The position numbers were made by a program, and so were the translations under genes. A stretch of 64,000 nt of DNA. Origin: Microgenomates group bacterium Gr01-1014_5 (GTDB lineage Bacteria; Patescibacteriota; Microgenomatia; UBA8517; UBA10165). Below the pieces are notes generated by a model that saw only the letters and a program-made list of their open reading frames with translations, made no database searches and had not been told where the DNA came from. The stretch covers positions 26,057 to 90,056 of the forward strand of contig VMGE01000003.1 in the NCBI GenBank assembly GCA_007376395.1. Reading direction: 5' to 3'. How positions within the stretch are numbered: position 1 is the stretch's first letter; each line of letters begins with the position of its first letter. This document shows positions 5,399-47,844 of this stretch, piece by piece.

Positions 5399-5401
5399 AT
5401 T

Positions 5402-30370: not shown

Positions 30371-30407
30371 AATAAGGTGAATTATAACATATCAACCTCT
30401 AAAGAAT

Positions 30408-31100: not shown

Positions 31101-31136
31101 ATTTAACCCGAATTTGTCAAGATGTAACTTCGAAGC

Positions 31137-31827: not shown

Positions 31828-31990
31828 ATCTCTATATTATCATACGTATTACGTATGTCAAGCGATAAAAAGGCTACGCTTATTTCGAGCTTGCGAGAAA
31901 CAAGGTTCGCTTATACCAGATTGAAGGTAGATTGTTTATTAAACTCGCATTCGATTGGAAAATTAAGCAATTCAGGCTTATAATATTCTT

Positions 31991-32926: not shown

Positions 32927-32954
32927 TTTTTTCCTAGCCTCGCCAGACCTTAAA

Positions 32955-33224
32955 TTAATCAGATTTGATTTTGAGAAGAAAGTATTTGAGTTGTTTTTTT
33001 AAAACCCGTTTCCCCATTGAAGTTTTTAGGTATTTTTCTCTTGCTTCAGTATCTTTCTTCAATAGATAAGCTTCATAGTAAATAAGTTTTAGGGGTTTGT
33101 AGGGAGCAGTCGAGAAATTATTTCCTGCATTATGTTCTTTTACCCTTTTCCTAAGATCAGAAGTTGAACCTTTATAAAACCATCCCGTCTTTTTCAAAGA
33201 TTGTAAAACATAAACATAGTACAC
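32955..33224 (-). CDS. Small GIY-YIG nuclease-domain protein
   Basis: YYVYVL...WFYKGSTSDLRKRVKEHN (GIY-YIG plus a conserved Arg and Glu); 89 aa. Confidence 0.75.
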   Translation of the reverse strand: MYYVYVLQSLKKTGWFYKGSTSDLRKRVKEHNAGNNFSTAPYKPLKLIYYEAYLLKKDTEAREKYLKTSMGKRVLKKQLKYFLLKIKSD

Positions 33225-33239
33225 TCAATTGATTTTATA

Positions 33240-33400
33240 CCCTTAGGGGTATTATGTCAGGGTGGTGTGCACAAAGTGCACATAATATCCCGACACCACC
33301 CCCACGAGGTCGGAAGAAAAAAGGCCCTGTTGGGGTTATTATGTGAACTTCGTTCACACCAACCCCATGAGGGTGGAATGAAAAAAGCCACCCTACCGGT
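33240..33400. repeat. Two tandem ~70-bp hairpin-forming units (GGG-TATTATGT...GTGCAC-aaa-GTGCAC-ATAATA...CCC, followed by CCCCA(C/T)GAGG(T/G)(C/T)GGAA(G/T)GAAAAAAG)
   Basis: Seen directly in sequence. The predicted ORF 33257..33439 merely translates this repeat (AFFIPPSWGWCE / AFFLPTSWGWCRD). Confidence 0.55.
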
Positions 33401-33425
33401 GGCTTTTGAATTTGATACCCTCAGT
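33386..33425. terminator. Bidirectional rho-independent terminator AAAAAAGCCACC-ctacc-GGTGGCTTTTGAATTT
   Basis: Perfect 8-bp GC-rich stem with an A-run before and a T-run after; downstream of the minus-strand gene 33538..34068. Confidence 0.55.
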
Positions 33426-33537
33426 TGCGAGGGATACAAGAAATAAGAACCTACTTCCTAGCCTCGCCTGACCCTGTATTTATACCAGATTTACGCTGAT
33501 TTTACCAGGGATTAGTTGACTGTGTTGGAACTTATTA

Positions 33538-34068
33538 CTACTGTCCATGACTTGCCATATAACTTACGATATCAGTAATGGCTTTGTTGTTTTTATTTAC
33601 CAAGTCATCCAGTGTACTTAACTCTACATTTGTAATTGCTTTCGAGAAGTCGAAATAATGCCCTCTTGAATATCCGCGCCTAACATTAATTTTTTGAGTT
33701 GATGGAGGAATACCCTCCTCGATATTGCCATACTGGATAAACCACTGTGAATGTGCTACGTCATTTCTTCCTTCTATGCACTCTTTGACCAAATTATAAG
33801 TGGGCAAGAATCTTTTTTGTGATTCTACCCCAATTCTTTGTACAATAAGATCACGTACTAAATCTAATTTTTCTAAAAATTCCATATTTTTTGCAATGGA
33901 ATTAGTAACATTTTGCTTTACTATTGATTCACCTTCTGGATTAATAAGATCTCCCATAAAAAATTCAAGGATCGATTCTAAATGTCGCGATAGTACAACC
34001 ACTTCACCAATTTTAGAAAGAAACTCTTTTGTTTTTGGATCAGAAGTATCTAAAAGAGTGGCATTCAT
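33538..34068 (-). CDS. Hypothetical protein, possibly HEPN-like (Rx4H: GRNDVAH)
   Basis: Alpha-helical 176-aa protein with a single R-x4-H motif. The call is weak. Confidence 0.35.
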   Translation of the reverse strand: MNATLLDTSDPKTKEFLSKIGEVVVLSRHLESILEFFMGDLINPEGESIVKQNVTNSIAKNMEFLEKLDLVRDLIVQRIGVESQKRFLPTYNLVKECIEGRNDVAHSQWFIQYGNIEEGIPPSTQKINVRRGYSRGHYFDFSKAITNVELSTLDDLVNKNNKAITDIVSYMASHGQ

Positions 34069-34145
34069 AAGTATATTTTATCATATTTGAAGCTAGTGGC
34101 TTTGCACACAGAAGCATGTATTTAACGCACCCCATAGAAATATTC

Positions 34146-34751
34146 TTAATAGAAGCCATTATATTTTTTTGTTAAATTAGAAACAGTTTCTAGTCGATCT
34201 TTTCTATAATAATATTTGTCAATTTTGTATTCGCTTGGGGAGATCTTTACAAGCTCAAAGATTAAATCATCTATACTTGCAAAATAGTCAGGAGTAGAAT
34301 TGTCGCGTGCTGTTCTTAACTCTTTAACTAGTACAACATAAACATCGGCTTTTTTTGTTATGTCGATAACATAGTACCAATTGAGTTTGAAGTCTAGACC
34401 TGCAGTTCCATACATTCGCAGAGATGTCGGTTGAGTTAAGTCTTTTCCTGTTAAAAAGTTGTATCCCTGTTGTTCTTTGTCGCTTGAAGGAGCCGTAAAC
34501 ATATTAAGAACTTCCTTACCATCTCTTTTAGCTTGGTATATTTCGAACGTCCTAATGGTTGATAATATAGAGATTGCCTCAGCTTCGCTCACAAAAGTTT
34601 TTGAGTATTCAAACTGAAGTTCCAAGTCTAGCTTCGATATTTCTTCAGACTTTGTCGCTTGCTCAGGTTGAACCTGTTGGTTATTAGTGGGCAAATAGTT
34701 TGCTACCAAAAAACCGATGATAATACCGGTCACAAGAATCAGAAGCCTCAT
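34146..34751 (-). CDS. Membrane-anchored hypothetical protein
   Basis: N-terminal TM helix then a soluble domain. Confidence 0.45.
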   Translation of the reverse strand: MRLLILVTGIIIGFLVANYLPTNNQQVQPEQATKSEEISKLDLELQFEYSKTFVSEAEAISILSTIRTFEIYQAKRDGKEVLNMFTAPSSDKEQQGYNFLTGKDLTQPTSLRMYGTAGLDFKLNWYYVIDITKKADVYVVLVKELRTARDNSTPDYFASIDDLIFELVKISPSEYKIDKYYYRKDRLETVSNLTKKYNGFY

Positions 34752-34884
34752 GATATATATTCATTCTACTATATACATAATTTGGTAAAATAAGAGTAGG
34801 TCTATTAGGCTTGGAAGATATAATAACAACTAGAAATATTCATTTTAGAGACAATTATAACGAGGGTACACCTATAACTAAGTT

Positions 34885-35091
34885 ATGAATAAAGCACAAA
34901 TCAAGCAACTCAATAAAAAAATTAACCAGTTACTTGAGCGCAGAAAAGCAACGGAAGATCGTGTCATACCGATCCTTACGGCAATAAAGTATGGTATCAA
35001 CTATACTACTAAATATAGTGAGCTTAAGGAAGAAGATTTAGATCGAATGATTAATGGTGAAAGTAGCAATAGAGATATAATTGCGCAATGA
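34885..35091 (+). CDS. Small hypothetical protein
   Basis: ORF track; 4-nt overlap with the next ORF. Confidence 0.35.
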   Translation: MNKAQIKQLNKKINQLLERRKATEDRVIPILTAIKYGINYTTKYSELKEEDLDRMINGESSNRDIIAQ

Positions 35092-35456
35092 AAAAATCAT
35101 GTTTGTTTATCAGAACTAACGGTTTACCATGCAAGGCTAAAACATTAATAAATGGAAACTTATGCTTCAGGCATGATCCAGACAAGGTAAGCATGGCACT
35201 TAATGCATCACGCAAAGGTGGAGAAAATAGAGCACTACAAGGGGTTTATGGTGAACCTATTACACTGAAAAACCCAGATGATGTTAAAAGATTTTTAGGA
35301 CAAGTTATAAATGCTGTTTGGTCAGAGGGTGTGCCGGTACAAGTAGGTAGCTCGATGGGCTTTTTAACAAGATGCTGGTTAGATGCTTATGAGGCTTCGG
35401 ATGTAATTAAAAGGTTAGATGAAATAGAAGAAAAATTAGACCTCATAAATCCCTAG
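35088..35456 (+). CDS. Hypothetical protein with an N-terminal C-x9-C-x9-C-x2-H cluster
   Basis: CLFIRTNGLPCKAKTLINGNLCFRH is a possible zinc ribbon. Confidence 0.4.
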   Translation: MKKSCLFIRTNGLPCKAKTLINGNLCFRHDPDKVSMALNASRKGGENRALQGVYGEPITLKNPDDVKRFLGQVINAVWSEGVPVQVGSSMGFLTRCWLDAYEASDVIKRLDEIEEKLDLINP

Positions 35457-35713
35457 TACTTATATTTTTTAGGAGTTATTTTAAAAGGATTAACAGTTCC
35501 CTTTTTACCGGTGAAAGGATTTATATTCCCTTTCGCAGAAAAATTATCAAACTTCGATTTATTTGGTGATGATTTATAGTGAGGTGCAACGTAAGTACCA
35601 CTCTTTTTTGTGTAGCCTCCTACTCTTTGTAGTGCTTCAGCTTTTGAAGCTGTAGCTAGAGAAAATGAGAATATCAAGAACAAAGCAACTAAACTAAAAA
35701 TAATCTTTTTCAC
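35453..35713 (-). CDS. Small secreted Lys-rich protein
   Basis: Signal-peptide-like N-terminus MKKIIFSLVALFLIFSFSLATASKA. Confidence 0.45.
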   Translation of the reverse strand: MKKIIFSLVALFLIFSFSLATASKAEALQRVGGYTKKSGTYVAPHYKSSPNKSKFDNFSAKGNINPFTGKKGTVNPFKITPKKYKY

Positions 35714-35769
35714 GGTCTGATTATATCACGGAAGTATCCTACATAATAATCCCGTGCAGAAACTATTTA

Positions 35770-36156
35770 TTACTCATTATCGTCAACATATGATTGCATG
35801 CCTTCCATGAAGGAATTGGAATTACCTGAATAGTTGTCAACATCGTCTTGTGTTATGCCACGTTCTTCTGCCCATTTATATCCCGCTTCGTGTCCACTAC
35901 AATCAACAGTGCAGGGGTACCCATTAAATAGTGGTGGGTCAGAATTTATATTAACATCTTCTTCTGCTTGATTGAGTTCAATATTTTCATTAGAAGAAGT
36001 AGTGGAATCAACTATAGGGGTGGCTGACCTATCATTTGTTGTGGTGCCAGAATTTGACGAGGAATTAAATAAAGAAAAAATTAAAAGAAAAAAAGCAGCA
36101 ATTCCTATAACCCATAAAACTTTCTTAACAGAAATATCGCTCATATTACTTTTCAC
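35770..36156 (-). CDS. Membrane-anchored protein with a Cys/His motif GYPCTVDCSGHEAGYKW
   Basis: TM anchor, Ser/Thr-rich linker and a small C-terminal domain. Confidence 0.45.
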   Translation of the reverse strand: MKSNMSDISVKKVLWVIGIAAFFLLIFSLFNSSSNSGTTTNDRSATPIVDSTTSSNENIELNQAEEDVNINSDPPLFNGYPCTVDCSGHEAGYKWAEERGITQDDVDNYSGNSNSFMEGMQSYVDDNE

Positions 36157-36204
36157 ACGAGAAACTGAACCATTTAGGATCTTAAAATTGGCTTTGTCTA
36201 GAAT

Positions 36205-36867
36205 TTATCGACAATACTTATCAAGTAAGCCATTTAAGCTATTTGTAGCATTTGATGAGCCAATTTCACACACTTGTCGTCCTAATTTAGCAAGATCGCC
36301 GTTATAACATTTATCAATACAATCTAGTGACTCTTGTCCTCTTCTTGTTACACAATCATCATAGCTTGAATAACCATACGAGGTTCTTGTCATTTCGTAA
36401 TTGCAAATATCTAGAGTGATATTTTTACAACCATTGACGCAATTTTGAGTATTGGCCTGTTGGCTATCTTGGCATTGAATATAGTCATTTGTTGAGCTCT
36501 TTACAGCAGTAGAAGCGTCCTTTACAGATTGAACTACTGAAGGATCGCAATAATAAGTGAGCCCATTATGAGATAACACTACCGGTACTTTTTGTGGGGT
36601 AACCGGTTGCGGTGTTGATTTGGAGGTAGGAATATCAATAGTTTTAGAACCTTGAGGATTTTTTATAGAGGTGGGTATTGTAGTTGGAATTAGAGTTGGT
36701 GACGGCGTAGATGTTACGTCAACTTTTTGAATTAAAGGTTGATTACCACTCAAGTTAATTTTTACAACACCATTTTTTACAGCAGCAGTTCCGACAAATA
36801 AAAGAATAACAGTCCAAATTAAGATAGGTATAAAAGCAATACCTTTTTGATTAGTCATTATGGTCAA
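36205..36867 (-). CDS. Membrane-anchored cysteine-rich secreted-type protein
   Basis: TM anchor, Pro/Thr-rich linker and about 12 Cys in the C-terminal 120 aa. Confidence 0.5.
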   Translation of the reverse strand: MTIMTNQKGIAFIPILIWTVILLFVGTAAVKNGVVKINLSGNQPLIQKVDVTSTPSPTLIPTTIPTSIKNPQGSKTIDIPTSKSTPQPVTPQKVPVVLSHNGLTYYCDPSVVQSVKDASTAVKSSTNDYIQCQDSQQANTQNCVNGCKNITLDICNYEMTRTSYGYSSYDDCVTRRGQESLDCIDKCYNGDLAKLGRQVCEIGSSNATNSLNGLLDKYCR

Positions 36868-36890
36868 TTATACTCTTAATTATCTTCGGT

Positions 36891-37238
36891 TCAGTCAGAA
36901 CGCTCAGGTAAAGATTCGCAGGCAATACCATCAGAATCACGATCAAGTCCAAATTTATCATAACCGAAGCAATCTATCTCTGCCTTGTAGAATCCTTTAG
37001 CAGTATCTTTATCGGGAAAATCAGAGCAATCCATGTCTTCTTCATCCTGAACCATAAGGCAATTGAGTTTATTGAGTTCTATCTTCCTTTCGGGGGTCAT
37101 TGGTGGCGGTGTAACAATCTTTACAGTCTCCTGCGAATTTTGATAATCATTATTTGAAAACTGATTATTCAAATTTCTATTTAGAAATAAAATCCCTATT
37201 AGTACCACAACAACCGTTATAAATAAATATTTACTCAT
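36891..37238 (-). CDS. Excalibur calcium-binding domain protein
   Basis: C-terminal DRDSDGIACE matches the Excalibur DxDxDGxxCE motif; N-terminal TM anchor. Confidence 0.6.
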   Translation of the reverse strand: MSKYLFITVVVVLIGILFLNRNLNNQFSNNDYQNSQETVKIVTPPPMTPERKIELNKLNCLMVQDEEDMDCSDFPDKDTAKGFYKAEIDCFGYDKFGLDRDSDGIACESLPERSD

Positions 37239-37329
37239 AGTTCTGATCTAAATATAGCTCAAAAAGATATAAAATGCTAGTTATTGTCTGTAGAGCTATT
37301 GACTACATTTAGCTACAGTTTTAGCTACT

Positions 37330-37542
37330 ATGTTAGCCACTCCTACAAGAAAACAGCTCGGTAAAAAGTTAAGAGAGTTAAGAAAGAAGGCGGGTTTATC
37401 ACAGGAAGAACTTGGATTCCGTGCAGGACTACACAGGACATACATTGGGGCTATTGAAAGAAGCGAACAAAATGTATCGGTTGATAATGTTCATAAGCTG
37501 GCTAAAGCACTTAAAATTCTTGTAAAAGAGCTGTTTGGATAG
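37330..37542 (+). CDS. XRE-family (Cro/C1-type) HTH transcriptional regulator
   Basis: LRELRKKAGLSQEELGFRAGLHRTYIGAIERSEQNVSVDNVHKLAKAL. Confidence 0.8.
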   Translation: MLATPTRKQLGKKLRELRKKAGLSQEELGFRAGLHRTYIGAIERSEQNVSVDNVHKLAKALKILVKELFG

Positions 37543-37807
37543 TATTTCCCCCACTGAGCCAAAATTAGGAGTGTTGACAAATACCCCAAATATGTTTTAT
37601 ACTACATCTATGCTAACAGTAGATCAGGTAGCCGAAAAACTAAATGTTCATAGAAATACAGTTATTAATCTTATAAAGCAAGGAAAAATTCGAGCTATTA
37701 GGATTGGCGATCAGTACAGGATACCAGAGGAGACGTATAGTCAGTTTATTACCGCTTCTGAAGTAAGGCCAGATAATGTGGTCGCAGGGAGCAAAGTTTT
37801 AGGTTAA
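37535..37807 (+). CDS. Excisionase/MerR-type HTH DNA-binding protein
   Basis: LTVDQVAEKLNVHRNTVINLIKQGKIRAIRIGDQYRIPEE is an Xis-family HTH. It overlaps the XRE gene. Confidence 0.65.
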   Translation: MDSISPTEPKLGVLTNTPNMFYTTSMLTVDQVAEKLNVHRNTVINLIKQGKIRAIRIGDQYRIPEETYSQFITASEVRPDNVVAGSKVLG

Positions 37808-37834
37808 TTAGGTTTATATTTAGGTATTTTTAGG

Positions 37835-39376
37835 TTGTCCGGAGTAACCCCGTATTTACGGAAGGTATGCCGCCAAGCGAACAGAAACAGTCGCTGGGCG
37901 GTTTTTTTGTGGCTTTTTTCTGGATGGGAGTTAAAAGCCCTCGTTAGGGTCTCTACCCAGGACGAGAGTTTTTATTTAGAAAAAATGGACAATAAAACTA
38001 ATAAGGAAATCAAAAGATGGTTCGATAGGAACCCGATAACCGAGACGCAAACTCCACAGTGTACTTCGCTTGAAGAAGCGCTGGAAGCTGTCGAGAGAGC
38101 GTTACCAGGTAAGAGAGATATGGCTCTTTTGGCAATGGCTGTTTATATAAGTCGCTTGGTTGATCTGAAAACCCCTTTATGGCTTATGTTCGTTGGTGTT
38201 CCCTCAAGTGCAAAAACAGAAATTGCTCGCATGCTTACTTATGCTCTCTGTATATATTTTCTTGATAGCTTAACCGAAAATGCTTTTGTTAGTGGCTCTA
38301 AAACTAAAACTGGCGAAGAGCCCAAAGATTTATTACCACTTTTAGATGATAAGTGCTTTGTTATTAAAGACTTCACTACAACTTTGTCCCAGAGAGAAGA
38401 GTCTGTAAGGAAGATACTTGGCGATTTAACCTCAATATACGATGATTCTTTTGCTAAACATTCACCTGTAAGAGGCACGATAGAATACCACGCTTTCTTC
38501 TCCCTTTTGTGTTGCGTAACACCGCAGGCTCTAAATCGTCATCAAAGGTATATGAATCAGATTGGCCCAAGATTTTTGTTTTACAGAGTACCGGCCAGTA
38601 TAGAGGAGGAGGTAAATAAAGGATTGGAAGTTTTGTGGTCTTCAGAAGATAGCCGGTCTAGAGTCCGCGAGGCACAAGAGAAAGTCTCCTCTTATTGTAA
38701 CTATATTGAAGAATCGGTTTCAGAGAAACGGCTAGAAAAGGAGAGCAAAGAAGTTATTAGCTACTTGAATAATCTTGCCAAATTTATAGCAAGAGCTAGA
38801 GGGATGGTTTTAACCAGAAATGCAGAGTTTGTAAATAAAGAAGGCGAGACGATTTCTTTTTATGAGCCGGTAGAGATACAGATTGAAGACCCATATAGAG
38901 CGTTGTTGCAATTAAGAGTTTTGGCCAGGTCGTTAGCTACGGTTAAAGGTAAGAGCTCTGTAGCGTTCTCTGAGATGGATTTGGTTAAACAGGTGGCTCT
39001 ATCTTCCATGCCAGCAGACCGCTCACTGCTACTTTCTGTTATTGCCAGAGAAAACAAAGACTGGACTGCTAAGGAAATTGCAGATAACTTGGGTATTTCT
39101 CATAAGACGGCACTCCGGCAACTAGACGAGTTAGTTTCCCTCAAGGTAGTAGTTAAGAGCGAGGGAGGGCTGGGATTAGCTCATATATATAGAATTAAGC
39201 CTGTCTTTGAATCCTTACTTTATAGCAGTACGGAGTTTATGTCCCACCCACCAACCGAGACACAAACTCCACAAGAGACAGTTGTTTCCTCCAATAAAAC
39301 TTCTGACCAGTTAACAGACGGAGAATTACTGAAAATCTTTCTGGGAGCAACGATTAAGGAGTCGATCCATGATTAG
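37835..39376 (+). CDS. Putative replication/primase-associated P-loop ATPase with a C-terminal winged HTH (mobile-element replication protein)
   Basis: Variant Walker A FVGVPSSAKTE, a C-terminal HTH (KEIADNLGISHKTALRQLDEL), and context between Xis and the serine recombinase. Confidence 0.45.
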   Translation: MSGVTPYLRKVCRQANRNSRWAVFLWLFSGWELKALVRVSTQDESFYLEKMDNKTNKEIKRWFDRNPITETQTPQCTSLEEALEAVERALPGKRDMALLAMAVYISRLVDLKTPLWLMFVGVPSSAKTEIARMLTYALCIYFLDSLTENAFVSGSKTKTGEEPKDLLPLLDDKCFVIKDFTTTLSQREESVRKILGDLTSIYDDSFAKHSPVRGTIEYHAFFSLLCCVTPQALNRHQRYMNQIGPRFLFYRVPASIEEEVNKGLEVLWSSEDSRSRVREAQEKVSSYCNYIEESVSEKRLEKESKEVISYLNNLAKFIARARGMVLTRNAEFVNKEGETISFYEPVEIQIEDPYRALLQLRVLARSLATVKGKSSVAFSEMDLVKQVALSSMPADRSLLLSVIARENKDWTAKEIADNLGISHKTALRQLDELVSLKVVVKSEGGLGLAHIYRIKPVFESLLYSSTEFMSHPPTETQTPQETVVSSNKTSDQLTDGELLKIFLGATIKESIHD

Positions 39377-39554
39377 TCAGGAAGCCATTGTGGAATTCAA
39401 AGAGTTGTATTTTCAGGAGTACAAAGTAAAACTTACTGACGAGCAGGCACTTGATTATGGAACAAGGCTTGTAGGACTAGTAAAAGCTGTTTATGGCAAG
39501 AATTTGCCAAAAGTGAATTTTATTGACAAGGATAACAAGAAAGAGAATAATTAA
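39369..39554 (+). CDS. Small hypothetical protein
   Basis: ORF track; 8-nt overlap with the upstream gene. Confidence 0.3.
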   Translation: MISQEAIVEFKELYFQEYKVKLTDEQALDYGTRLVGLVKAVYGKNLPKVNFIDKDNKKENN

Positions 39555-39558
39555 AGGG

Positions 39559-39625
39559 TACTCAAACGGCTGATTGCTTTTTTTGATGGCCGTCTTGGAC
39601 AACCTGAGCAATCAGTTTGAGTACA
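39559..39625. promoter_or_regulatory. Imperfect inverted repeat GTACTCAAACGGCTGATTGCT ... AGCAATCAGTTTGAGTAC (about 28-nt spacer) upstream of the serine recombinase. It is a candidate attP-like site or operator.
   Basis: Seen directly in sequence; 18/21 matched arms. Coordinates are within ±2 nt. Confidence 0.4.
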
Positions 39626-41386
39626 ACCAGGGCGGCCTTTAAAGATTTTATGGAAGAAAAACAAATCTATCTTCGCTATTTGGGGTATGTTCGCAAGAGT
39701 TCAGAAGATAACAAGGAGCGACAAGCCGCTTCCCTCCCCGAGCAGTTATATGTACTCGAAGGAATTAAAGCAAAACACAACTTAACTCTCGTTGATACTC
39801 TCCAAGAATCAAAATCGGCACACAAGCCTGGGCGGGAAATCTTTAACAATATGCTTGCCCGAATAGAGAGCAGTGAAGCAAACGCAATTTTAACCTGGCA
39901 CCCCAACAGGCTTTGCCGTAACGCACTTGATGCTGGACAACTTCTTTATCTCATGGACGAAGATAAATTAGTCGAAATTCGCACACCTTCGCGGACATAT
40001 CGAAATACCCCAGAAGACAAATTTATGTTGACCCTTGAATTTGGTATGTCCAAAAAAGACTCGGACGATAAAAGCATTGTTGTTGAAAGAGGTTTGGAAA
40101 AGAAAGCAAGGGACGGCTGGAGGCCAGGTGTTGCTCCACAAGGATACTTGAATGATAAAACAACAGAGAGTGGCTTTAGAAAGATACTGACTGACCCTGA
40201 AAGGTTGTCCTTTATTAAGAAAATCTTTGAGCTTTTTTCCAATGGAACTTCTGTAGTTGAAATCCACAGAATTGCCAAAGACGAATGGAAATTTCTCTCA
40301 AGACAAAAGAAACGAAGCGGTGGTATACCGCTTTCTTTGAGCATGATTTATAAGATGTTGACTAACCCTTTTTATTGCGGAAAGTTTGAGTATCCAGAAG
40401 GAAGCGGCAAATGGTACGAAGGCGCACACGAACCAGCAGTAGACCAAAAGATATTTGACGAAATACAGGTCAAATTAGGCCGCAGAAGCCAATACAAGCT
40501 CCAACATCACAACTTTGCCTATACAGGTAGTATGGTTCGCTGTGGTTCGTGTAATTCAAGCATAGTAGCCGAGCAAAAATGGCAGTGTATTTGTACCAAG
40601 TGCAAGCTAAAATTCTCGCTTACCAAGAAAAATAAAGAAAGGTGTACTGGTTGTGGGACTCTTATCAAGAATATGTCCGACCCAACTATTCTCCACTATG
40701 TCTATTATCGTTGCGGACGGAAAAAGAATCCGAATTGTAGGGAGCGTGCAGAAAGAGTTGATAGGCTTGAGAAGCAAATTGATGAAAAACTCTCTCAAAT
40801 TGAAATCTCACCCTTGTTTATGGACTGGGCAATACGCCAAATCCACAAGATGAATGATAGTAATAAAGATTTTACAGAAGAAGCCATAGAGAGCATTAAA
40901 CGAGCCCATGACGGATGCAGGGCAAAGCTTACTAACTTACTGCAACTTAAAATTTCACCTGCAAATAGCGATGGTGGCCTTATCAGCGACGAGAAATACA
41001 AGGAAGAAAAGGATAAATTAGAAATAGAGTTAAAAGGAGTAGAAAAACAACTTGTTAATACTGACGACAGAATGTTGCAGGCAAATGAAGAGACTGTAAA
41101 AGCGTTTACTTTTGTTGCCAGAGCAAAAGAAAGGTTTGCAACTGATGATTTGAAAATAAAACGAGATATTTTTTTGGGACTTGGGTCGCACCTAACTTTG
41201 CAAAATAAAACAGTCGGAATTATAGCACCAAAATACATTTATACGATCGAAAAAATGAAAGAAGCTGAGCCGATTATCGCAGAACGGGTCGCACCTGGAA
41301 ATCAGCCTGAATATACGCACCAAATGGAGACATATTTTGCCTCCAATCCTACTCTGTTGCGGGGCCGGGAGTCGCGCCCGGCCTAG
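39617..41386 (+). CDS. Large serine recombinase (phage-integrase type)
   Basis: N-terminal resolvase catalytic domain YLGYVRKSSEDNKERQAASLPEQ with the catalytic Ser. A recombinase domain, a Cys-rich zinc ribbon (CGSCNS...CTKCK...CTGCG) and a coiled-coil follow. Confidence 0.88.
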   Translation: MSTTRAAFKDFMEEKQIYLRYLGYVRKSSEDNKERQAASLPEQLYVLEGIKAKHNLTLVDTLQESKSAHKPGREIFNNMLARIESSEANAILTWHPNRLCRNALDAGQLLYLMDEDKLVEIRTPSRTYRNTPEDKFMLTLEFGMSKKDSDDKSIVVERGLEKKARDGWRPGVAPQGYLNDKTTESGFRKILTDPERLSFIKKIFELFSNGTSVVEIHRIAKDEWKFLSRQKKRSGGIPLSLSMIYKMLTNPFYCGKFEYPEGSGKWYEGAHEPAVDQKIFDEIQVKLGRRSQYKLQHHNFAYTGSMVRCGSCNSSIVAEQKWQCICTKCKLKFSLTKKNKERCTGCGTLIKNMSDPTILHYVYYRCGRKKNPNCRERAERVDRLEKQIDEKLSQIEISPLFMDWAIRQIHKMNDSNKDFTEEAIESIKRAHDGCRAKLTNLLQLKISPANSDGGLISDEKYKEEKDKLEIELKGVEKQLVNTDDRMLQANEETVKAFTFVARAKERFATDDLKIKRDIFLGLGSHLTLQNKTVGIIAPKYIYTIEKMKEAEPIIAERVAPGNQPEYTHQMETYFASNPTLLRGRESRPA

Positions 41387-41733
41387 GAGATTATGCATCT
41401 GTAATCTCTAATTACTCAGAGTGTCGGACTATATCTTCACCCCGATTAAATCGGGGGCTCGGCGTGTAGTCTCTACGGTGTCCCTCCGAAACTTTAGTGA
41501 AGGAGGGTTCCCTCGGTATTACCCTCTATAAGAGTAGGGTTTCACCGATATAGCCAAGTTATCAAGAAACATTACTGTTAAATGTGCCCAATTTGAGCCT
41601 CCTGTGCAACTCTACACTACCCCGCATGTCTCTTACCAACTGAATTATAACAGATGCAGGCTCGAATTAAAAGCCTCTTGACTACCAATAGAATAGCTGT
41701 TATGGTGATAGTTAAACCACATAACTTTATACA
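41387..41733 (+). other. Highly structured ~345-nt non-coding region with several perfect hairpins. Candidate ncRNA or attachment-site region.
   Basis: Hairpins CCCCGATT-taaa-ATCGGGG, CCCTCC-gaaactttagtga-GGAGGG and CTCT-ata-AGAG; no ORF; GC is higher than in surrounding intergenic DNA. Confidence 0.3.
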
Positions 41734-42423
41734 TTGATCAGGAAACCCCTAGAAAAACAAAAAGCTCAAGAGCTACGAAAGCAAGGCAAGAGTATCGGAG
41801 AAATAGCACAAGAACTTGGAATTTCAACCTCAACAGTTAGCTTGTGGGTAAGAAATATTACTTTAACAACTGAGCAGAAAAAACGGCTTGAAAATAAGGT
41901 GTTTACTACCCTACAGAAAGGTAGGATTATCGCCCAGGAGGTTCAAAAACAATTAAGAGACAATCTCAAAAGAGAAATCTCTGCCGAAGCCGTACTACAA
42001 CTCGGAAAACTCTCAAAAAGAGACCTTTTTATTGCCGGAATTATCCTATATTGGACAGAGGGTTTTAAAAAAGATAATCGGTTAGGATTTGCAAATTCCG
42101 ACCCACAAATGGTCAAGTTATTCTTAAAATGGCTTTATACCTTGGGAGTACCAAAAAATAGTATCCGTTTAAGAGTTGGGATAAATATTAGCCACAAAAA
42201 GAGAGTTAAGGTTATAGAAAAATATTGGTCTAAACAAACCAACATCCCCCTTTCTCAATTTCAGAAGCCCTTTTTTCAAAAATTTATATGGAAAAAAGAA
42301 TTTCCTGATCCAAACTTATACCATGGAGTTATAAGAGTGCGTGCCATAAACCAAGGCAGATTGTTCATAAAAATACTTAAATGGATAGCATTGGTAAGAA
42401 CTTCAAATAATACTTTGCTATAA
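41734..42423 (+). CDS. HTH plus LAGLIDADG-like homing endonuclease fusion (paralog B; TTG start)
   Basis: ELRKQGKSIGEIAQELGISTSTVSLWVR HTH; FIAGIILYWTEGFKK. Confidence 0.6.
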   Translation: MIRKPLEKQKAQELRKQGKSIGEIAQELGISTSTVSLWVRNITLTTEQKKRLENKVFTTLQKGRIIAQEVQKQLRDNLKREISAEAVLQLGKLSKRDLFIAGIILYWTEGFKKDNRLGFANSDPQMVKLFLKWLYTLGVPKNSIRLRVGINISHKKRVKVIEKYWSKQTNIPLSQFQKPFFQKFIWKKEFPDPNLYHGVIRVRAINQGRLFIKILKWIALVRTSNNTLL

Positions 42424-42429
42424 TAAAGT

Positions 42430-42780
42430 GTGGCTCTGGTTCTAATAGCTCTCTTCTGGTTTTGGCCAATACTTCTTTCCTTTGCCACAATTTTTATTTA
42501 CGGATTACTGACCCAAAAAATCGGGAACGAAAGGTTTGTATATTTGGTAATTATTAGCTTGGTTTTGGCACCAATTGCGCTATCTGCACAAGCCTTCTAT
42601 GTTTGCGGGTTGGATATTGACTATTACCATAATTGTAGCTTGAGCGAACGCTTAAACGAGGTTAGTAAATTTCTTCCTTCGATTATTAGAGGTTCAACTT
42701 TTTTATTAAGCGGTGTTTACTTTTCAATTTTTTACCTCGCAATACTTGCTAAACACTTAAAAAACAAGTACTTGCATTAA
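42430..42780 (+). CDS. Hypothetical membrane protein
   Basis: ORF track; 3 TM helices. Confidence 0.4.
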   Translation: MALVLIALFWFWPILLSFATIFIYGLLTQKIGNERFVYLVIISLVLAPIALSAQAFYVCGLDIDYYHNCSLSERLNEVSKFLPSIIRGSTFLLSGVYFSIFYLAILAKHLKNKYLH

Positions 42781-43227: not shown

Positions 43228-44094
43228 ATGGCTACAACTAAAACATTAACCGATTTAAAACTGGACTTTGTTCGTAATCTTGAAAATACAGGACGTGCCT
43301 CAGCTACCATTCTAGCTTACAGAAAAGACCTTGAGCAACTTATTGAGTATTTAGAAAAACAAGGGAAAAACACCATTGAGCCTATCAGACCTCTCGACAT
43401 CGAGGCTTTTCGTGATTCCTTAAGGAGCCAAAATTATACTGACAAATCAGTCTCCCGCAAGCTAAACGCGGTCAAAACTTTCTTTGGCTGGCTGGTAACC
43501 CAGAAAATTTTAGAAAATGACCCAGCAGCGCCCGTTGCCCACCCCCGCTACGAGAATCCACCCCCAAGAATTCTTACCCGCATGGAGTACAGGGCTTTGC
43601 GTGACGCCGCCCGCGGAGATTTGCGCATTAGCGCTATTATCGAGTCAATGCTGCAAACCGGAATCCGTATTGGCGAGGTTTCCAATCTAAGACTAGAGGA
43701 CGTCCAAGGAGATAAAATTTTAATCAAGGCGTATGAATCTCAACCAGAACGCGAGATTCCCTTAAACGAGCCGGCAAAACAAGCTTTACATCAATACTTA
43801 GCAATCCGCCCCAAGGCACAAACTACTCACGTCTTTGTGACTAAAACAGGCCGTCCGCTACTCGTCCGCAACATAAGGAGTGCTATTGACCGCTATTTTA
43901 AAGAAGCCGGCATAGAAGACGCCAAAGTAAACGACATGCGCAACACCTTTATCGCCCACCAACTAAAGTCGGGTGTCGATATTGTCACGGTCTCCAAAAT
44001 TGCCGGGCACAGAAGACTCTCAACCACAGAGCACTATCTTCAGTTTGTTGAAAGAAAAGAGTCCCGCCGCGGAGCAAAACTAGACGAGCTCTAA
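43228..44094 (+). CDS. Tyrosine recombinase (XerC/XerD-like)
   Basis: R...H-x-x-R...Y pattern: GIRIGEVSNLRL, ...HQLKSG..., and C-terminal IAGHRRLSTTEHYLQ. Confidence 0.85.
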   Translation: MATTKTLTDLKLDFVRNLENTGRASATILAYRKDLEQLIEYLEKQGKNTIEPIRPLDIEAFRDSLRSQNYTDKSVSRKLNAVKTFFGWLVTQKILENDPAAPVAHPRYENPPPRILTRMEYRALRDAARGDLRISAIIESMLQTGIRIGEVSNLRLEDVQGDKILIKAYESQPEREIPLNEPAKQALHQYLAIRPKAQTTHVFVTKTGRPLLVRNIRSAIDRYFKEAGIEDAKVNDMRNTFIAHQLKSGVDIVTVSKIAGHRRLSTTEHYLQFVERKESRRGAKLDEL

Positions 44095-45881
44095 ATAATT
44101 CCGCATAGATATAGCGCTCTTCTTTGGTTTTGGCTATATTGATCCATATTACCCCAAATAAATGATTTTTCAATTGACCGAACTTCTTCTTTAGAATAAG
44201 TCTGCCCTCCCATAGAATAACCATTAGAATACATGTACCGAATCCCATGATCTTCCGCCCTATTAGTGGGGTGATCGGTATGATTTCCCGAGCGAGTTCC
44301 CAACTCAATTGCTAATTTAACAGTTTGCCATGTAGCCTCCCAACTATCTCTATCCCAAGCCCACATCCCTCCCGTGTGGATTCGAAAACCTAACCTCTTT
44401 AATGTATCCACAACTGCAACATCTCGAACTTTTGAAGCAAGAACCTCCCTGATAGATTGCAAACCGTTATTAAACTCAGTCGCACTAACAACCCCTGCAG
44501 GAAAAAGACTGTAAGCCTCTGACGCTAAATCCTGAATTGTATGGTTCTTAAAGTACTCTTGAAGGTCTATTCCCTCCCAAAGATTCCATATGCTTTCCCA
44601 GAGAGCATTATTTTTTGTGTCGTATACCTCAAGACCTTTTTGATATCTTATTCGATCAAACAATCCATCTCCTATTTCCCTCTTCATGTATTGCACAAAA
44701 CTAGACTTGTCGTCTTTAACTCTTTCAAATAGCTGATTAATCGTCACCGGTGAAAGAGACTGGTCATACTTAATTCTGGTTATTCTCTCTTCTTGTAATT
44801 CCTCTCCTTGTAAACTTTGAGTTTTTCCACCTTCAACAAATACGCTTCCTTCTGGCATTTCAAAACTTCCACCAACGGGCAGTTCCCAAAAGGAATCAAC
44901 TGTATTAAGCTGGGTTGGTTTACCGTTGGCTTCCAAAGCTGACTTAAAAGGGATAATAACAGCATATCCAGCTCCTTCCCAGGAACCATACATATGAGAC
45001 ACAACCGGGTGGTTCATTGAAAAATGTAGTGTTGTGCGAGGAGATAAACCTCTTGTTGAATCAAAGGTAGAGCGAATTTCATATCGCCCAGTTTCAGGAT
45101 TCATTACTGGTTTAAACCTTGTCAAGTGCACACAAACCAACTCCTCTACTTTTAAGGCTTCCTGGGTGACTGGAAAATTTTTGGAGTGCTCGAGAAGTTT
45201 TTCATTTGCTTGGGCGTCTCTTTCTTGGTCATGTTTTTCTAGCTGAGCCAACTTTTCAGAAGATAAAGTTTTCGCAGCTTCATCACCTATTAACAAAAGC
45301 ACTGCTAAAACCTCGCCTTCTCTTTTGTTTTCCTTATTAGCCGCAACTCCGTTTGTATCAACAATATTTCCAGCTACTACCCTATCAATTAAATCTCTAA
45401 CTTGCGGGGTAAACTTCCAATTAACCACTGTTAATTTTCTTGCTTCTCTAATTTGAGAATCATTCCCGCCCAAATGGAAATATAAATCCAGTAAACCCTG
45501 AGGGCTTGATTCAACAAGAAAAGTCGCTTTTCCGTCGTTTAAAGCTTTTTGGTATTCAGGACCGCTCGATCCGCTTGTTTGTTCGCTTTTAATTATTCTG
45601 GCAGCTTGGGGTACTTTTTCTTGTCCTTCACGGGTTTTTAAGCTTCCTACGGGTACAACCAATCTATCTTTTACCAAATCCCCGCCACTGGTCGGTTCAC
45701 CGCGGCTAAAAAATATAGCTTCGACTTTTTGCCCCTGTTTCGTTGTAAATTCGTAAGCATAAATCGCTCTTCCCTCCTCGTCAACCCCTTCTCTTCTTTG
45801 GAAAGGATATTCTTTCGGAGGTTCTGACGGCTTAATTAATTCACTTTGTGAAGCAGTTAATGTTTCAGCTACTTCTGGCAT
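44091..45881 (-). CDS. Large hypothetical cytoplasmic protein (596 aa)
   Basis: ORF track; no TM helices; no motif I can recognise. Confidence 0.5.
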   Translation of the reverse strand: MPEVAETLTASQSELIKPSEPPKEYPFQRREGVDEEGRAIYAYEFTTKQGQKVEAIFFSRGEPTSGGDLVKDRLVVPVGSLKTREGQEKVPQAARIIKSEQTSGSSGPEYQKALNDGKATFLVESSPQGLLDLYFHLGGNDSQIREARKLTVVNWKFTPQVRDLIDRVVAGNIVDTNGVAANKENKREGEVLAVLLLIGDEAAKTLSSEKLAQLEKHDQERDAQANEKLLEHSKNFPVTQEALKVEELVCVHLTRFKPVMNPETGRYEIRSTFDSTRGLSPRTTLHFSMNHPVVSHMYGSWEGAGYAVIIPFKSALEANGKPTQLNTVDSFWELPVGGSFEMPEGSVFVEGGKTQSLQGEELQEERITRIKYDQSLSPVTINQLFERVKDDKSSFVQYMKREIGDGLFDRIRYQKGLEVYDTKNNALWESIWNLWEGIDLQEYFKNHTIQDLASEAYSLFPAGVVSATEFNNGLQSIREVLASKVRDVAVVDTLKRLGFRIHTGGMWAWDRDSWEATWQTVKLAIELGTRSGNHTDHPTNRAEDHGIRYMYSNGYSMGGQTYSKEEVRSIEKSFIWGNMDQYSQNQRRALYLCGII

Positions 45882-45933: not shown

Positions 45934-47844
45934 TTATTCCGTTCTCTTTTGGCTTACTGCTCCGGGGATTTTTTCCCAATCGCGATTCTTCCTTACTTTT
46001 AAGTTCTTGTTCCAAATAGACTCAAATACAGATAAATCCACTTGTAAAGCTCGAGCTAAGCCCAAAAAACCAACAAGGTCTTTAGGAAAACAGTTATGGA
46101 CAACTGCATCTGCTAAGACGTATGTGTGATTTTTACTAACCTCAAAGTTATAAACTTTTCCTTCATAATCAACCTCAGTAATTTCTTTAATAGGTATAAA
46201 AAAGAAGTCTTTCTCGAAAAAAGAAGTCTTACGTAGAAGTTTAAGGTCTTTTTCTAGTTTGTCGTCGATAATCTGACTAAATTTCTGAATATCGGAATAA
46301 TTCCTAATCCTAATAAAGTAGGCTGTCTTATGATTTACTCCATCCCTACCTGTTCTCTCTTGTGCGATCCTGGTAGAAAAACCAATTTCCAAGCTTAGTA
46401 AAATCAATTTTAATTGATAAAATAAATCCTGAGAAATAGTCGCCATACTATAAACTCCGGTTGATTTGCTACCGTCACCTCTAAAATAACCTTTCATAAA
46501 CTCAGTTAAACCCTTTCTGTTTGATGATAAAATTTTTACACTTAGACGTTTTTTCGCACTCATTTTACCGCAATTTTCCTCAAGTAAGTTAGCTAGTTTC
46601 TGTGAACTACACCGTAGATTAAGTGCATTTCCTACCCCTCTTCTGTGTGTAACTAAGCTGAAATTCAGCTTCAATATTTTCTCAATATCCTCTACATAAG
46701 TAGATTCGTTTTTGTGGAACCCAAATGTTATTCTGTTTTTCACACCTATGTGTCCCTCTGCTACATAATATCCAAAGAGCCGCATAACACTATTATTAAA
46801 ATTTTTCGTACCATTTTTAACTTTAGGTAAAACTATAAAATCTCCTTTTTGTAATTCTCGAGCTGGTACCCACTCTAAATTAAGATTGCCGTTATAATTA
46901 GTAAGCTTTTGTCTTTTAATTCCATTATATTTTCTTCCGGTTTTTACAGCATATACAGGATGTTCACTTGTAAGGGTAAATCCCTGCAACCCCTGTCCTC
47001 TTATAAAAATAAGTTTCTCATTTACCTCTCTTTCGTGCCTTTCTAAAACTTTTTGACAACTTCCATCTATTGTTAGAACAGAATCGCCAAATTCTACTTC
47101 TCGAACGAATTTTATTCCTCCGTTTACATAGACTTTTGTTTCAGGATGTAAACATTTCCCGCCAAATCCCATATCCCCGTCCGGGCCGGGAACTTTCAAA
47201 TGCCCTCCAATTCTCGGGTCTGCCTGTACCATTTCGCGGACATCGTCATAATTTACTTTTAATTTATCTGCTAAACCATGTATTTCATTTGCCAAAATAA
47301 TTTTGGCGGACAATAGCGCGTTGGAAGCAAATTTTGCAAGTTCAACAGTCGTTGGATCACTTAAGAAATATTTCGCGTCCTGGGGGTAAATTGCCTCGTA
47401 TAAAGCCTTGATTCTTTCAGCGATACTTTTATCAAGAGCTCCTATCAAGGTTCTGTCTGGGTGTAAAAAGTCATTTTCTGGCTGTTTTTCAGTTAAAAAT
47501 TCGGGGTTGAAGGCAAAATTTACATTAGAATATTTTTCGCTGAAACTTTTAGTTGTTCCGGGGATAACTGTTGATTTGATAATTAATACTTTTTCCGTAT
47601 TAACCAAAAGTGGAGCAAAATTACTGACTGCCTCCTCTACTACAGAAATATCTGTTCCGGAATAATCAGAAAACATAGGTGTGGGGACACAGACAAATAG
47701 AAAATCTGAAGCCTCGACCAATTCTTCGACACTTAGCCCGCCTTCTTTATATGGGTCGTGCCACGCAACCTCGTGTGAGCTTTGAAAACCCTTACCTGTT
47801 GCTTGTCCTACAACTCCCCAACCAATAATACCAACCTTTGCCAT
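45934..47844 (-). CDS. Nucleotide-sugar (UDP-glucose/GDP-mannose) dehydrogenase-family protein interrupted by an intein. The C-terminal extein is unusually short (52 aa).
   Basis: N-terminal Rossmann GIIGWGVVG, and a catalytic-site GFGGK-[C...VVHN]-CFPKD split by the intein. Confidence 0.8.
   Translation of the reverse strand: MAKVGIIGWGVVGQATGKGFQSSHEVAWHDPYKEGGLSVEELVEASDFLFVCVPTPMFSDYSGTDISVVEEAVSNFAPLLVNTEKVLIIKSTVIPGTTKSFSEKYSNVNFAFNPEFLTEKQPENDFLHPDRTLIGALDKSIAERIKALYEAIYPQDAKYFLSDPTTVELAKFASNALLSAKIILANEIHGLADKLKVNYDDVREMVQADPRIGGHLKVPGPDGDMGFGGKCLHPETKVYVNGGIKFVREVEFGDSVLTIDGSCQKVLERHEREVNEKLIFIRGQGLQGFTLTSEHPVYAVKTGRKYNGIKRQKLTNYNGNLNLEWVPARELQKGDFIVLPKVKNGTKNFNNSVMRLFGYYVAEGHIGVKNRITFGFHKNESTYVEDIEKILKLNFSLVTHRRGVGNALNLRCSSQKLANLLEENCGKMSAKKRLSVKILSSNRKGLTEFMKGYFRGDGSKSTGVYSMATISQDLFYQLKLILLSLEIGFSTRIAQERTGRDGVNHKTAYFIRIRNYSDIQKFSQIIDDKLEKDLKLLRKTSFFEKDFFFIPIKEITEVDYEGKVYNFEVSKNHTYVLADAVVHNCFPKDLVGFLGLARALQVDLSVFESIWNKNLKVRKNRDWEKIPGAVSQKRTE
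46093..47154 (-). mobile_element. Intein (354 aa) with a LAGLIDADG homing-endonuclease domain, inserted at the catalytic Cys of the dehydrogenase
   Basis: Begins with Cys (CLHPE...) and ends ...VVHN followed by a +1 Cys. Contains LAGLIDADG-like LFGYYVAEGHIG. Confidence 0.75.

Follow-up and report, generated by a model that had tools for sequence, protein, structure and literature searches.

A 7.9-kb mobile element, probably inserted by its large serine recombinase at the 3' end of an initiator-type tRNA gene in a Microgenomates bacterium

Results and discussion

In order to follow up a preliminary description made from the sequence alone, we analysed a 64,000-nt stretch of the genome of Microgenomates group bacterium Gr01-1014_5 (assembly GCA_007376395.1, contig VMGE01000003.1, positions 26,057 to 90,056 of the forward strand; hereafter the window, numbered from its first letter). 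That description had read four consecutive plus-strand genes at 37330-41733 as a small element mobilised by a large serine recombinase (LSR). Based on comparison with related contigs, we consider it likely (probability about 0.85) that these genes are part of a 7.9-kb mobile element inserted by its LSR at the 3' end of an initiator-type tRNA(CAU) gene, and that the element belongs to a family found in Patescibacteria. The element (33424-41355) is probably also replication-capable. Its mobilisation by a serine recombinase, as first proposed, is borne out by element-free sites in near-identical genomes, by conserved ends and by the family-wide context. The element, its attachment (att) sites, the LSR gene and the target gene are as follows.

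33424..41355, plus strand: entire integrative element (7,932 bp from one core to the other), delimited by three-way comparison of attL, attR and the element-free attB
33424..33432, plus strand: attL core GTTGCGAGG, with the 6 bp GTTGCG in common with attR and the predicted crossover inside them
33425..33499, plus strand: P arm, which after circularisation would encode the LSR C-terminal tail LRG-IQEIRTYFLASPDPVFIPDLR*, a conserved tail peptide
41313..41355, plus strand: P' arm within the LSR C-terminal codons, from comparison of att sites
41356..41364, plus strand: attR core GTTGCGGGG, complement of the tRNA 3' acceptor strand and discriminator base
39650..41386, plus strand: LSR with Resolvase and Recombinase domains (the open reading frame (ORF) from TTG 39617 is 39617-41386)
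41356..41626, minus strand: initiator-type tRNA(CAU), the target gene; exon 1 41596-41626, intron 41396-41595, exon 2 41356-41395

Element-free sites and the ends of the element

A scan of metagenome contigs with the 3' exon of the tRNA gave 24 contigs, in the majority of which no LSR follows the tRNA. One of these relatives, L103, shares 95% nucleotide identity with the window in DivIC-Xer and reads ...CTTTTTGAATTTGATACCCTCT-GTTGCGGGG-CCGGGAGTCGCG, running into the tRNA with no element; its left flank before the core GTTGCGGGG and the tRNA reads ...TTGAATTTGATACCCTCT. In the window, the L103-type left flank is joined at 33424 to GTTGCGAGG-GATACAAGAAATAAGAACC..., and at 41356 the LSR gene's end, ...CCTCCAATCCTACTCT, meets the tRNA. 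The same arrangement as in L103, without the window element, was observed in L107. In L095 and L109 (89-95% nucleotide identity), the genes for tryptophanyl-tRNA synthetase (TrpRS), tRNA-Met, tRNA-fMet and DivIC follow in direct succession, and relative to L095 the entire 30376-41354 is additional DNA in the window. Because the junctions could be compared with element-free L103, L107, L095 and L109, the element is placed at 33424-41355. Boundaries that had been thought impossible to set from sequence are thus set at 33424 and 41356, and the suggested comparison with genomes lacking the element located both attL and attR.

Judged against the element-free attB, attL has the order B'-core-P and attR the order P'-core-B, with a common core of 6-9 bp. 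The crossover falls somewhere in GTTGCG, the complement of ...CGCAAC at the acceptor end with the discriminator. A direct-repeat search over 29-44.5 kb did not expose the att sites, because the common core is just 9 nt. The P arm of the left end is kept in at least 18 related elements, and its consensus has one full match in the 64-kb window, where none is expected by chance. These related elements, at least 18 in number and 4-9 kb in size, have the same P' and P arms around the core and largely unrelated cargo. The GC content is 0.34-0.37 over 30-38 kb, compared with ~0.42 elsewhere. From the two ends, the attP junction of the circular form can be deduced to read ...CCAATCCTACTCT-GTTGCG-AGGGATACAAGAAATAAG....

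At the level of sequence, these comparisons establish the insertion polymorphism, the element ends with their core, and the overlap with the tRNA described below; the LSR is the predicted catalyst of the attP x attB recombination. The LSR would recombine attP with the 3' end of the host initiator-type tRNA(CAU) gene, with the crossover inside GTTGCG. A hairpin at 41326-41344, followed by a T-run, is found in the P' arm when read on the tRNA strand and would serve the tRNA as a terminator. The element would supply the same last nucleotides together with this hairpin, restoring the tRNA end, and the tRNA gene would remain intact after integration because of what the element side brings.

On contig L092 (3910-3973), only ~21 nt of the P' arm from the LSR side follow tRNA-fMet before unrelated DNA begins, which looks like the scar of a deleted element.

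The large serine recombinase and its family

The call of a large serine recombinase holds, with matches to Resolvase (PF00239, E=2.4e-14) and Recombinase (PF07508, E=3.8e-11). ATG 39650 is a likelier start than TTG 39617, and it matches the N-terminus of most LSR homologues. The catalytic R-x-S-S motif is invariant, as are Y24, R26, S28, S29 and Q36 across 20 homologues. Eight cysteines at positions 309-374 are likewise invariant in LSR homologues; the zinc-ribbon model PF13408 is recorded for some of these, with no match in the window protein. The closest solved relative is SprA of SPbeta (alignment over residues 20-335). We identified more than 110 full-length homologues with 49-94% identity, the named ones almost all from Microgenomates or other Patescibacteria. 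An exact look-up of the 589-aa LSR gave no identical product, the nearest being P0001 (94% identity, also 589 aa). A C-terminal LRG is present in nearly all of 20 aligned homologues, its L and R being invariant.

The LSR ORF overlaps the tRNA's 3' end by 31 nt on the opposite strand. Read in antisense, the acceptor and T-arm encode the last LSR residues, L-R-G-RESRPA*, the last nine codons plus the stop being antisense to the tRNA. In Patescibacteria, about 25 homologous LSRs show the same kind of overlap with a tRNA 3' end, mostly that of tRNA-fMet and otherwise those of tRNA-Phe, tRNA-Asn or tRNA-Ser. Among close homologues obtained together with their flanks, the LSR ends in a convergent tRNA(CAU), with or without intron, in each case where the contig reaches far enough, the exception being L011. 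At 16 close homologues tRNA(CAU) was detected by ARAGORN; in most others, the sequence of this tRNA 3' exon adjoins the LSR end. The LSR of L011 (67% identity) overlaps tRNA-Phe and has a matching core, GTGCCG, while LSRs at 32-36% identity overlap tRNA-Asn or tRNA-Ser genes. Such an overlap is what one expects of an element that has integrated at a tRNA 3' end with its recombinase gene right at its border. The family thus offers a natural series of recombinases retargeted to tRNA 3' ends (fMet, Phe, Asn, Ser), with core codons changed to match.

In L003, L004, L005 and L007 the LSR adjoins the same tRNA and DivIC-Xer, LSR identity drops roughly with taxonomic distance, and the LSR divergence between the window and L005 (94% identity) is similar to that of the flanks. 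This would suit a domesticated recombinase, the LSR and its neighbours being fixed, vertically inherited genes of the locus and the upstream variation being unrelated island turnover. We regard such a history as very improbable. Near-identical genomes lack the LSR at the same tRNA, and a close homologue (at least 49% identity) occurs in just ~25 of 80 species genomes, all of them returned by the scan itself. A close homologue sits on tRNA-Phe with its core changed accordingly, both ends are conserved, and the tail coding described below makes sense only after circularisation. In addition, the whole unit is inverted relative to its flanks in L001. The synteny comparison that could have exposed conserved core genes did not do so: the LSR is at the same place in several relatives, yet other close relatives are without it, and the cargo differs.

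In L001 (GCA_016196685.1) the island, the LSR and tRNA-fMet form a unit that is inverted relative to the window, bordered as there by DivIC on one side and by TrpRS-FtsH on the other, which implies a whole-segment inversion in one lineage.

The target tRNA gene and its group I intron

The split tRNA gene at 41356-41626, previously unannotated, was detected by ARAGORN with intron search. The stretch 41387-41733, described earlier as intergenic, thus holds an overlooked group I intron within the minus-strand tRNA(CAU); the Rfam model RF00028 matches the minus strand at 41405-41605 with 68.2 bits (threshold 50). Splice sites were placed using intronless alleles of relatives together with the rule for group I introns, by which U is the last base of the 5' exon and G that of the intron. 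A single exon/intron placement satisfies this rule and gives an intron of 200 nt. The anticodon loop then reads CUCAUAA, with the anticodon CAU, and the intron would be inserted between U33 and C34. The intron is present in the window, L095, L109 and L107 and missing in L005, L096 and L103, a distribution among near-identical genomes that is independent of the presence of the LSR element.

Many orthologues of this tRNA start with CGCGGGG and end with CCCCGCAA, which gives a C1xA72 mismatch and A73, an acceptor stem that we take to be that of E. coli tRNA-fMet. The window tRNA has CAU and A73, but U1-A72 instead of C1xA72. Its anticodon stem (GGAGG/UCUCC) is without the three G:C pairs of the initiator type, and its T-loop is atypical. 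Compensatory T-stem substitutions occur across the genomes of the orthologues, and L030 has a canonical tRNA-fMet at the equivalent site. Taken together, the minus-strand tRNA(CAU) looks like a functional initiator tRNA.

Could the tRNA with its intron be cargo of the element instead of its chromosomal target? The tRNA and the LSR are always adjacent and are inverted together in L001; moreover, both the T-loop and the D-loop of the tRNA are atypical, and the Rfam tRNA model did not detect it. Nevertheless, we find the idea scarcely credible, since element-free contigs keep an identical tRNA beside DivIC-Xer, other members of the family use Phe, Asn or Ser tRNA genes, and this is the sole tRNA in the 64-kb window with initiator features (C1xA72 in orthologues, A73 and an acceptor stem like that of E. 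coli tRNA-fMet).

Group I introns occur in cyanobacterial tRNA-fMet and tRNA-Leu and in Azoarcus tRNA-Ile. As in those genes, the intron is of a self-splicing type and interrupts the anticodon loop, here of tRNA(CAU), and its presence is sporadic among close relatives. Unlike them, it is found in a host of the Candidate Phyla Radiation (CPR), its predicted site is U33/C34, and the same tRNA gene is also the attB of an LSR. One essential gene, that of the initiator tRNA, can thus carry both a group I intron and an integration hotspot.

The attachment site within the recombinase gene

The right end of each element was joined to its left end, as circularisation would do. In this joined form the LSR frame crosses the core into the P arm and acquires a 21-aa tail of the pattern LRG-(L/I)(E/Q)EIRTYFL-x5-(F/I)IPDL(R)*, and in 8 of 10 elements whose tails are of the FIP type the stop position is identical. 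Across 21 junctions, variation falls mostly on third codon positions (entropy 0.51, 0.41 and 1.13 for positions 1, 2 and 3). Synonymous codons are exchanged in the tail for Arg (AGA, AGG, CGA, CGC) and for Leu (TTG, CTA, CTC, CTG), and three different stop codons are used at one conserved position. Third-position variation, synonymous Arg/Leu exchange and the three stops at the same position are the reasons for concluding that the P-arm tail is under protein-coding constraint. In the deduced junctions attP is thus located inside the 3' end of the LSR gene, and from this location it follows that integration would swap the C-terminal tail. Integration would carry the tail codons to the far end of the element (33425-33499), and the LSR would then end in RESRPA*.

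The tails of the integrated forms are set by the antisense of the tRNA and range from 0 to more than 60 residues. A full tail is carried by the database protein P0033 at a tandem-element junction on contig L111, where two attP-type junctions with the tRNA-Phe-type core GTGCCG lie 6.2 kb apart, that is, in head-to-tail elements. A search of database ORFs with the tail profile gave nine short fragments, including P0217 and P0218, which are relic junction ORFs; no circular contig was among the results of the search with the long-tail profile.

Another explanation for the conserved P arm is that it is recombinase-binding DNA only, the natural LSR stop being the one inside the tRNA, with no alternative tail. 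Conservation is to be expected of the P arms at LSR attP sites, as DNA to which protein binds, and the long LSR form is a predicted product. We nevertheless hold this to be improbable. Variation has a three-nucleotide periodicity, synonymous changes cross codon families, and three stops share one codon position. Furthermore, the conservation is ~70 nt long and extends beyond a typical half-site, the integrated-form tails range from 0 to >60 aa, and distant homologues have a similar motif, LLRG-xNDVRTxWF, contiguous within the ORF.

While coding constraint on the tail is evident in the junction sequences, an effect of the tail swap on function is our extrapolation from them. If the swap acts as a switch, an LSR with the 21-aa tail, maybe integration-competent, integration-biased or differently stable, would be produced from the excised or tandem form, and a tail-less LSR ending in arbitrary residues antisense to the tRNA from the integrated form. 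The topology of the element would then determine directionality or expression. Should the swap affect activity, it would represent a new and simple control of directionality, relevant to the engineering of serine integrases.

To our knowledge, serine integrases targeting tRNA genes are uncommon, and none has been described with attP within its own ORF. In a keyword search of the open-access literature, attP within an integrase gene was found only for tyrosine integrases, mainly of the archaeal SSV type. In the mycobacteriophages BPs and Brujita, attP lies in the repressor gene and integration alters the C-terminus of the repressor, hence its stability and activity. The present case resembles this integration-dependent immunity in having attP in a coding region and a protein C-terminus changed by integration. 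It differs in that in the phages the repressor gene is affected and the integrase is a tyrosine integrase, and no degradation tag is evident in the LSR tail. The SSV1-type archaeal tyrosine integrases have attP within the int gene (reviewed in PMC8371274). They likewise combine an att site inside the integrase ORF with a tRNA target, and integration partitions the integrase gene. However, they are tyrosine recombinases of archaeal viruses whose gene is split into two large, presumably inactive parts, whereas the serine recombinase studied here would lose only a 21-aa tail and keep all its domains.

The promoter and leader of the recombinase gene

Two features precede the LSR start codon.

39523..39551, plus strand: promoter-like site TTGACA-17-AATAAT, within the end of a 61-aa ORF; 11 of 12 consensus positions
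39558..39649, plus strand: predicted pseudoknotted 5' leader of the LSR mRNA, from covariation and a common fold

The TTGACA is at the same distance in homologous elements. The leader has the helices S1 (39558-64/39618-24) and S2 (39570-78/39607-15) and an 11-bp pseudoknot helix, in which the hairpin loop (39588-98) pairs with the segment just before the start codon (39627-37). Its layout is common to 17 divergent elements; the sequence of S2 differs in almost every one, and all 17 fold S1 and S2. For S1 and the pseudoknot helix together, the fraction of cells that pair is 98.7%, with changes on both sides in 10 of the 18 pairs. None of 500 shuffles reached the observed values, and in slid controls ~40% pair. 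Covariation is thus apparent from the alignment. No Rfam family matched the leader, a permissive threshold included. It is a new RNA motif that shows strong covariation and whose genetic context is clear. The LSR would be expressed from its own promoter through this leader, whose 3' helix would cover the expected position of the ribosome-binding site, and the leader is thus a putative cis-regulatory structure that would occlude the ribosome-binding region.

An inverted repeat at 39559-39625 had been put forward as a candidate attP core. The repeat does exist (39558-39624, with perfect arms of 10 and 9 nt), but its use as attP was rejected; the ends of the element were located at other positions, and covariation marks the repeat as an RNA structure, that of the mRNA leader.

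Regulators, replication helicase and cargo

The other genes of the element are listed below.

37330..37542, plus strand: XRE/Cro-CI HTH (helix-turn-helix) regulator, 70 aa; HTH_3, E=1.7e-15; homologues in 12 of 20 elements
37535..37807, plus strand: HTH_17/excisionase-family DNA-binding protein, 90 aa from TTG; PF12728, 1.1e-13; TIGR01764, 8.8e-15
37835..39376, plus strand: putative MCM-like AAA+ replicative helicase, 513 aa, with a C-terminal winged helix; predicted fold and invariant motifs
39369..39554, plus strand: conserved 61-aa ORF directly before the LSR gene; in 15 of 20 elements, no family match
33538..37238, mixed strands: cargo, eight small ORFs with no assigned function
33538-34068 and 34146-34751, minus strand: cargo ORFs
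34885-35091 and 35088-35456, plus strand: cargo ORFs
35453-35713, minus strand: cargo ORF with a signal-peptide-like N-terminus
35770-36156, minus strand: cargo ORF
36205-36867, minus strand: Cys-rich cargo ORF
36891-37238, minus strand: Excalibur-like cargo ORF

The four ORFs described at the outset are present at their coordinates, but the consecutive plus-strand genes number five when the 61-aa ORF (39369-39554) is counted. The family assignments of the XRE repressor (HTH_3, E=1.7e-15) and the Xis-like protein (HTH_17, 1.1e-13; TIGR01764, 8.8e-15) were reproduced, whereas the overlap reported between the two genes amounts to 8 nt and exists only if TTG 37535 is the real start. Both proteins would have a regulatory role. 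No homologue of the HTH_17 protein was found in the 19 other elements compared. It is unique to the window element and a candidate excisionase, whereas the 61-aa ORF is the most conserved LSR partner across related elements, and its product is in our view the best candidate for an accessory or directionality factor. For both proteins, the candidacy as directionality factor builds on position and linkage. The genes kept across related elements are those for the LSR and the 61-aa protein, and often that for the XRE protein, while the replication module is exchangeable.

The 513-aa protein had been annotated as a replication ATPase, with which its invariant P-loop, its MCM-like predicted fold and its primase-fused homologues agree. 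The GxPSSxKT (P-loop) and hhhKD motifs are invariant in homologues. Pfam matched only the C-terminal winged helix (HTH_11, residues 402-447), with no MCM match by sequence, and a PDB sequence search gave no match. In the AlphaFold2 model (pLDDT 75, pTM 0.72), the top 50 PDB matches by Foldseek were almost all MCM2-7 subunits (E 7e-9 to 4e-5). Homologues are often fused to Prim-Pol/PriCT_1 or Toprim domains. The model thus supports assignment as an MCM-like AAA+ helicase without the primase domain of many relatives, which would support replication of the excised circle. Replication modules of the 513-aa type are found in the window, L012 and L015, Toprim plus AAA_25 in L007, L021 and L005, and others elsewhere.

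The helicase at 39290-39376 and its counterpart at ~9680-9760 of L007 are unrelated (MCM-like and AAA_25, respectively), and they end in a near-identical C-terminal peptide, NKTSDQLTDGELL.IF.GATI, which appears to mark a mosaic recombination joint just before the 61-aa ORF.

Upstream of the regulators, the run of small membrane, secreted or Cys-rich ORFs noted earlier does exist and makes up the cargo. Pfam, PHROGs and PADLOC found almost nothing in these ORFs, and just three of the eight have homologues in other elements.

Tandem arrays and recombinase-less cassettes

Two or three copies of core plus P arm per locus were observed in L012, L020 and L021. In L001, two such copies flank a GIY-YIG gene (5364-5815). 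In several contigs without an LSR, a P arm follows the tRNA at a distance of 0.8-2 kb downstream, with cargo genes enclosed; LSR-less cassettes bounded by P arms occur in L087, L089, L100 and L105. Given the multi-copy loci and the LSR-less contigs with P arms, the site gathers both elements and recombinase-less cassettes. A small GIY-YIG gene (81-89 aa) is found between P-arm repeats in the window (32931-33423) and in L001, and this unit looks like a recombinase-less cassette of the same system. To the left of the gene in the window, direct repeat D1 (32931-32959/33455), which the repeat search over 29-44.5 kb had brought up, is a relic of P-arm DNA coding for the tail (FLASPD).

In the flank downstream of the tRNA site (33235-33418) there is a terminator hairpin. 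Between the window, L103 and L107 its stem has compensatory changes, and after it come two copies of a conserved TTCCACCCTCATGGGGTTGGTGTGAACGAAGTTCACA-like motif that is also found in L099, L103 and L107.

Several observations weigh against the element as we have delimited and interpreted it. The attL and attR cores differ by one mismatch (A for G), outside GTTGCG, and an attempt to find the crossover dinucleotide by dyad symmetry gave GT, GC or CG depending on the choice of motif. No excised circle or attP junction of the window element was found, the tandem junctions of L111 being those of a relative. The flank B' (33235-33423), or the whole of 32931-33423 with the GIY-YIG gene, may be an older cassette and not native DNA. 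In L005, the closest relative, whose LSR is 94% identical, an unrelated gene lies just upstream of the LSR; the modules are therefore mosaic, and the four genes are only candidates for functioning together. Finally, a helicase without a primase domain may be impaired in autonomous replication.

A more far-reaching proposal joins three of the features above: an intragenic attP that would act as a state switch, a pseudoknotted leader that would gate translation, and an initiator-tRNA gene of CPR bacteria that, given the LSR-less cassettes with the same arms, would be a cassette-capture platform served by one recombinase family. We offer this combination tentatively and judge it rather doubtful as a whole.

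Relationship to known classes of mobile elements

By Pfam and PHROGs, no capsid, portal, terminase, tail or lysis gene was found among the element ORFs, and no relaxase, type IV secretion system or coupling protein among the 13 element ORFs. A reading as an integrative and conjugative or mobilizable element was rejected, there being no relaxase among the ORFs; a TraG-like ATPase (52821-55166) lies outside the element and is kept in relatives. A defence island was also rejected, since PADLOC gave only winged-HTH look-alikes in the C-terminus of the helicase. An Islander-type test found the tRNA intact at attR and its last 6-9 nt repeated at the far end. The recombinase was not the tyrosine integrase that this test looks for, the only one inside the element being a serine recombinase, and the Xer gene (43228-44094) lies outside and is present at element-free sites.

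The order of modules, with regulators, replication helicase and integrase, is that of phage satellites. A helper-packaged satellite similar to phage-inducible chromosomal islands (PICI), or a cryptic prophage remnant, would thus be an alternative to a plasmid-like integrative element; PICI-like elements combine an integrase, regulators, a replication gene of the primase/helicase type and some small genes. The 86-aa secreted protein matches phrog_29674 at 5e-20, a sister element carries DUF669, which is presumably a phage-associated family, and the tycheposons discussed below include PICI-like members. However, we consider this origin unlikely: neither Pfam nor PHROGs gave a capsid, terminase, portal or packaging gene among the element ORFs, IMG/VR holds no LSR of the close family, and the elements are just 4-9 kb. 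A prophage proper was rejected, given the lack of structural genes (PHROGs) and of IMG/VR relatives.

The closest architecture to that of our proposed integrative element is that of the staphylococcal cassette chromosome (SCC), which has the MCM-like helicase Cch just upstream of the recombinase, tandem composites and recombinase-less pseudo-elements. As in SCC elements (SCCmec, with CcrA/B or CcrC), an LSR integrates at the very 3' terminus of a conserved housekeeping gene and leaves that gene functional, and an MCM-like helicase gene lies just before the recombinase gene. There is also tandem build-up at one site, with recombinase-less pseudo-elements that have the same repeats, and a variable cargo. 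The differences are a tRNA target here and rlmH in SCC, a single LSR with attP within its ORF, a CPR host, a size of 4-9 kb (SCC is much larger) and the pseudoknotted leader. NCBIfam matches of the LSR to Ccr are weak (CcrA 50 bits with a cut-off of 700, CcrB 49 with a cut-off of 900), and we take the likeness to be architectural only.

The tycheposons of Prochlorococcus are also small, tRNA-targeted elements with an integrase, an excisionase/regulator, a primase/helicase, variable cargo and tandem junctions. They mostly use tyrosine recombinases and duplicate a tRNA fragment, LSRs being used by just 27 of 937 (Hackl et al., bioRxiv 10.1101/2020.12.28.424599). Unlike in tycheposons, the core here is just 6-9 bp, the recombinase gene spans attP, and both the lineage and the target tRNA are others. 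Mobile elements of CPR/Patescibacteria are poorly characterised, and this locus represents a precisely delimited, family-wide case in which attP, attB, attL and attR can be deduced.

Neighbouring loci

The homing-endonuclease-like gene reported downstream of the LSR (41734-42423) exists but is not in the element, as it lies on the far side of the target tRNA. It is one of three ~228-aa paralogues (32-34% identity) at 30408-31100 (minus), 41734-42423 (plus) and 48228-48908 (minus). All have an N-terminal HTH_23 and a LAGLIDADG-like motif, IAGLxLYWGEG (weak profile match to I-DmoI, E=0.03), and each lies beside a tRNA gene, namely tRNA-Met, tRNA-fMet and tRNA-Ile(TAT), respectively. The 41734 copy and a 116-aa membrane ORF (together within 41630-42780) are missing in the close relatives L095, L103 and L005, and thus represent a separate insertion beside the 5' end of that tRNA gene. 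The tRNA-Ile with anticodon TAT, at 48126-48203 (minus), is kept in L003 and L005 and suggests an uncommon reading of AUA in which the lysidine tRNA-Ile2 is not needed.

LAGLIDADG inteins were identified in UDP-glucose dehydrogenase (45934-47844, minus) and ribonucleotide reductase (56295-60083, minus). In L005 the dehydrogenase is without the intein, and a 596-aa ORF (44091-45881) is also missing. In addition, a 127-aa gene with a tRNA_bind domain (28795-29178, minus) lies between FtsH and TrpRS in the window and is missing in the collinear L095 and L109.

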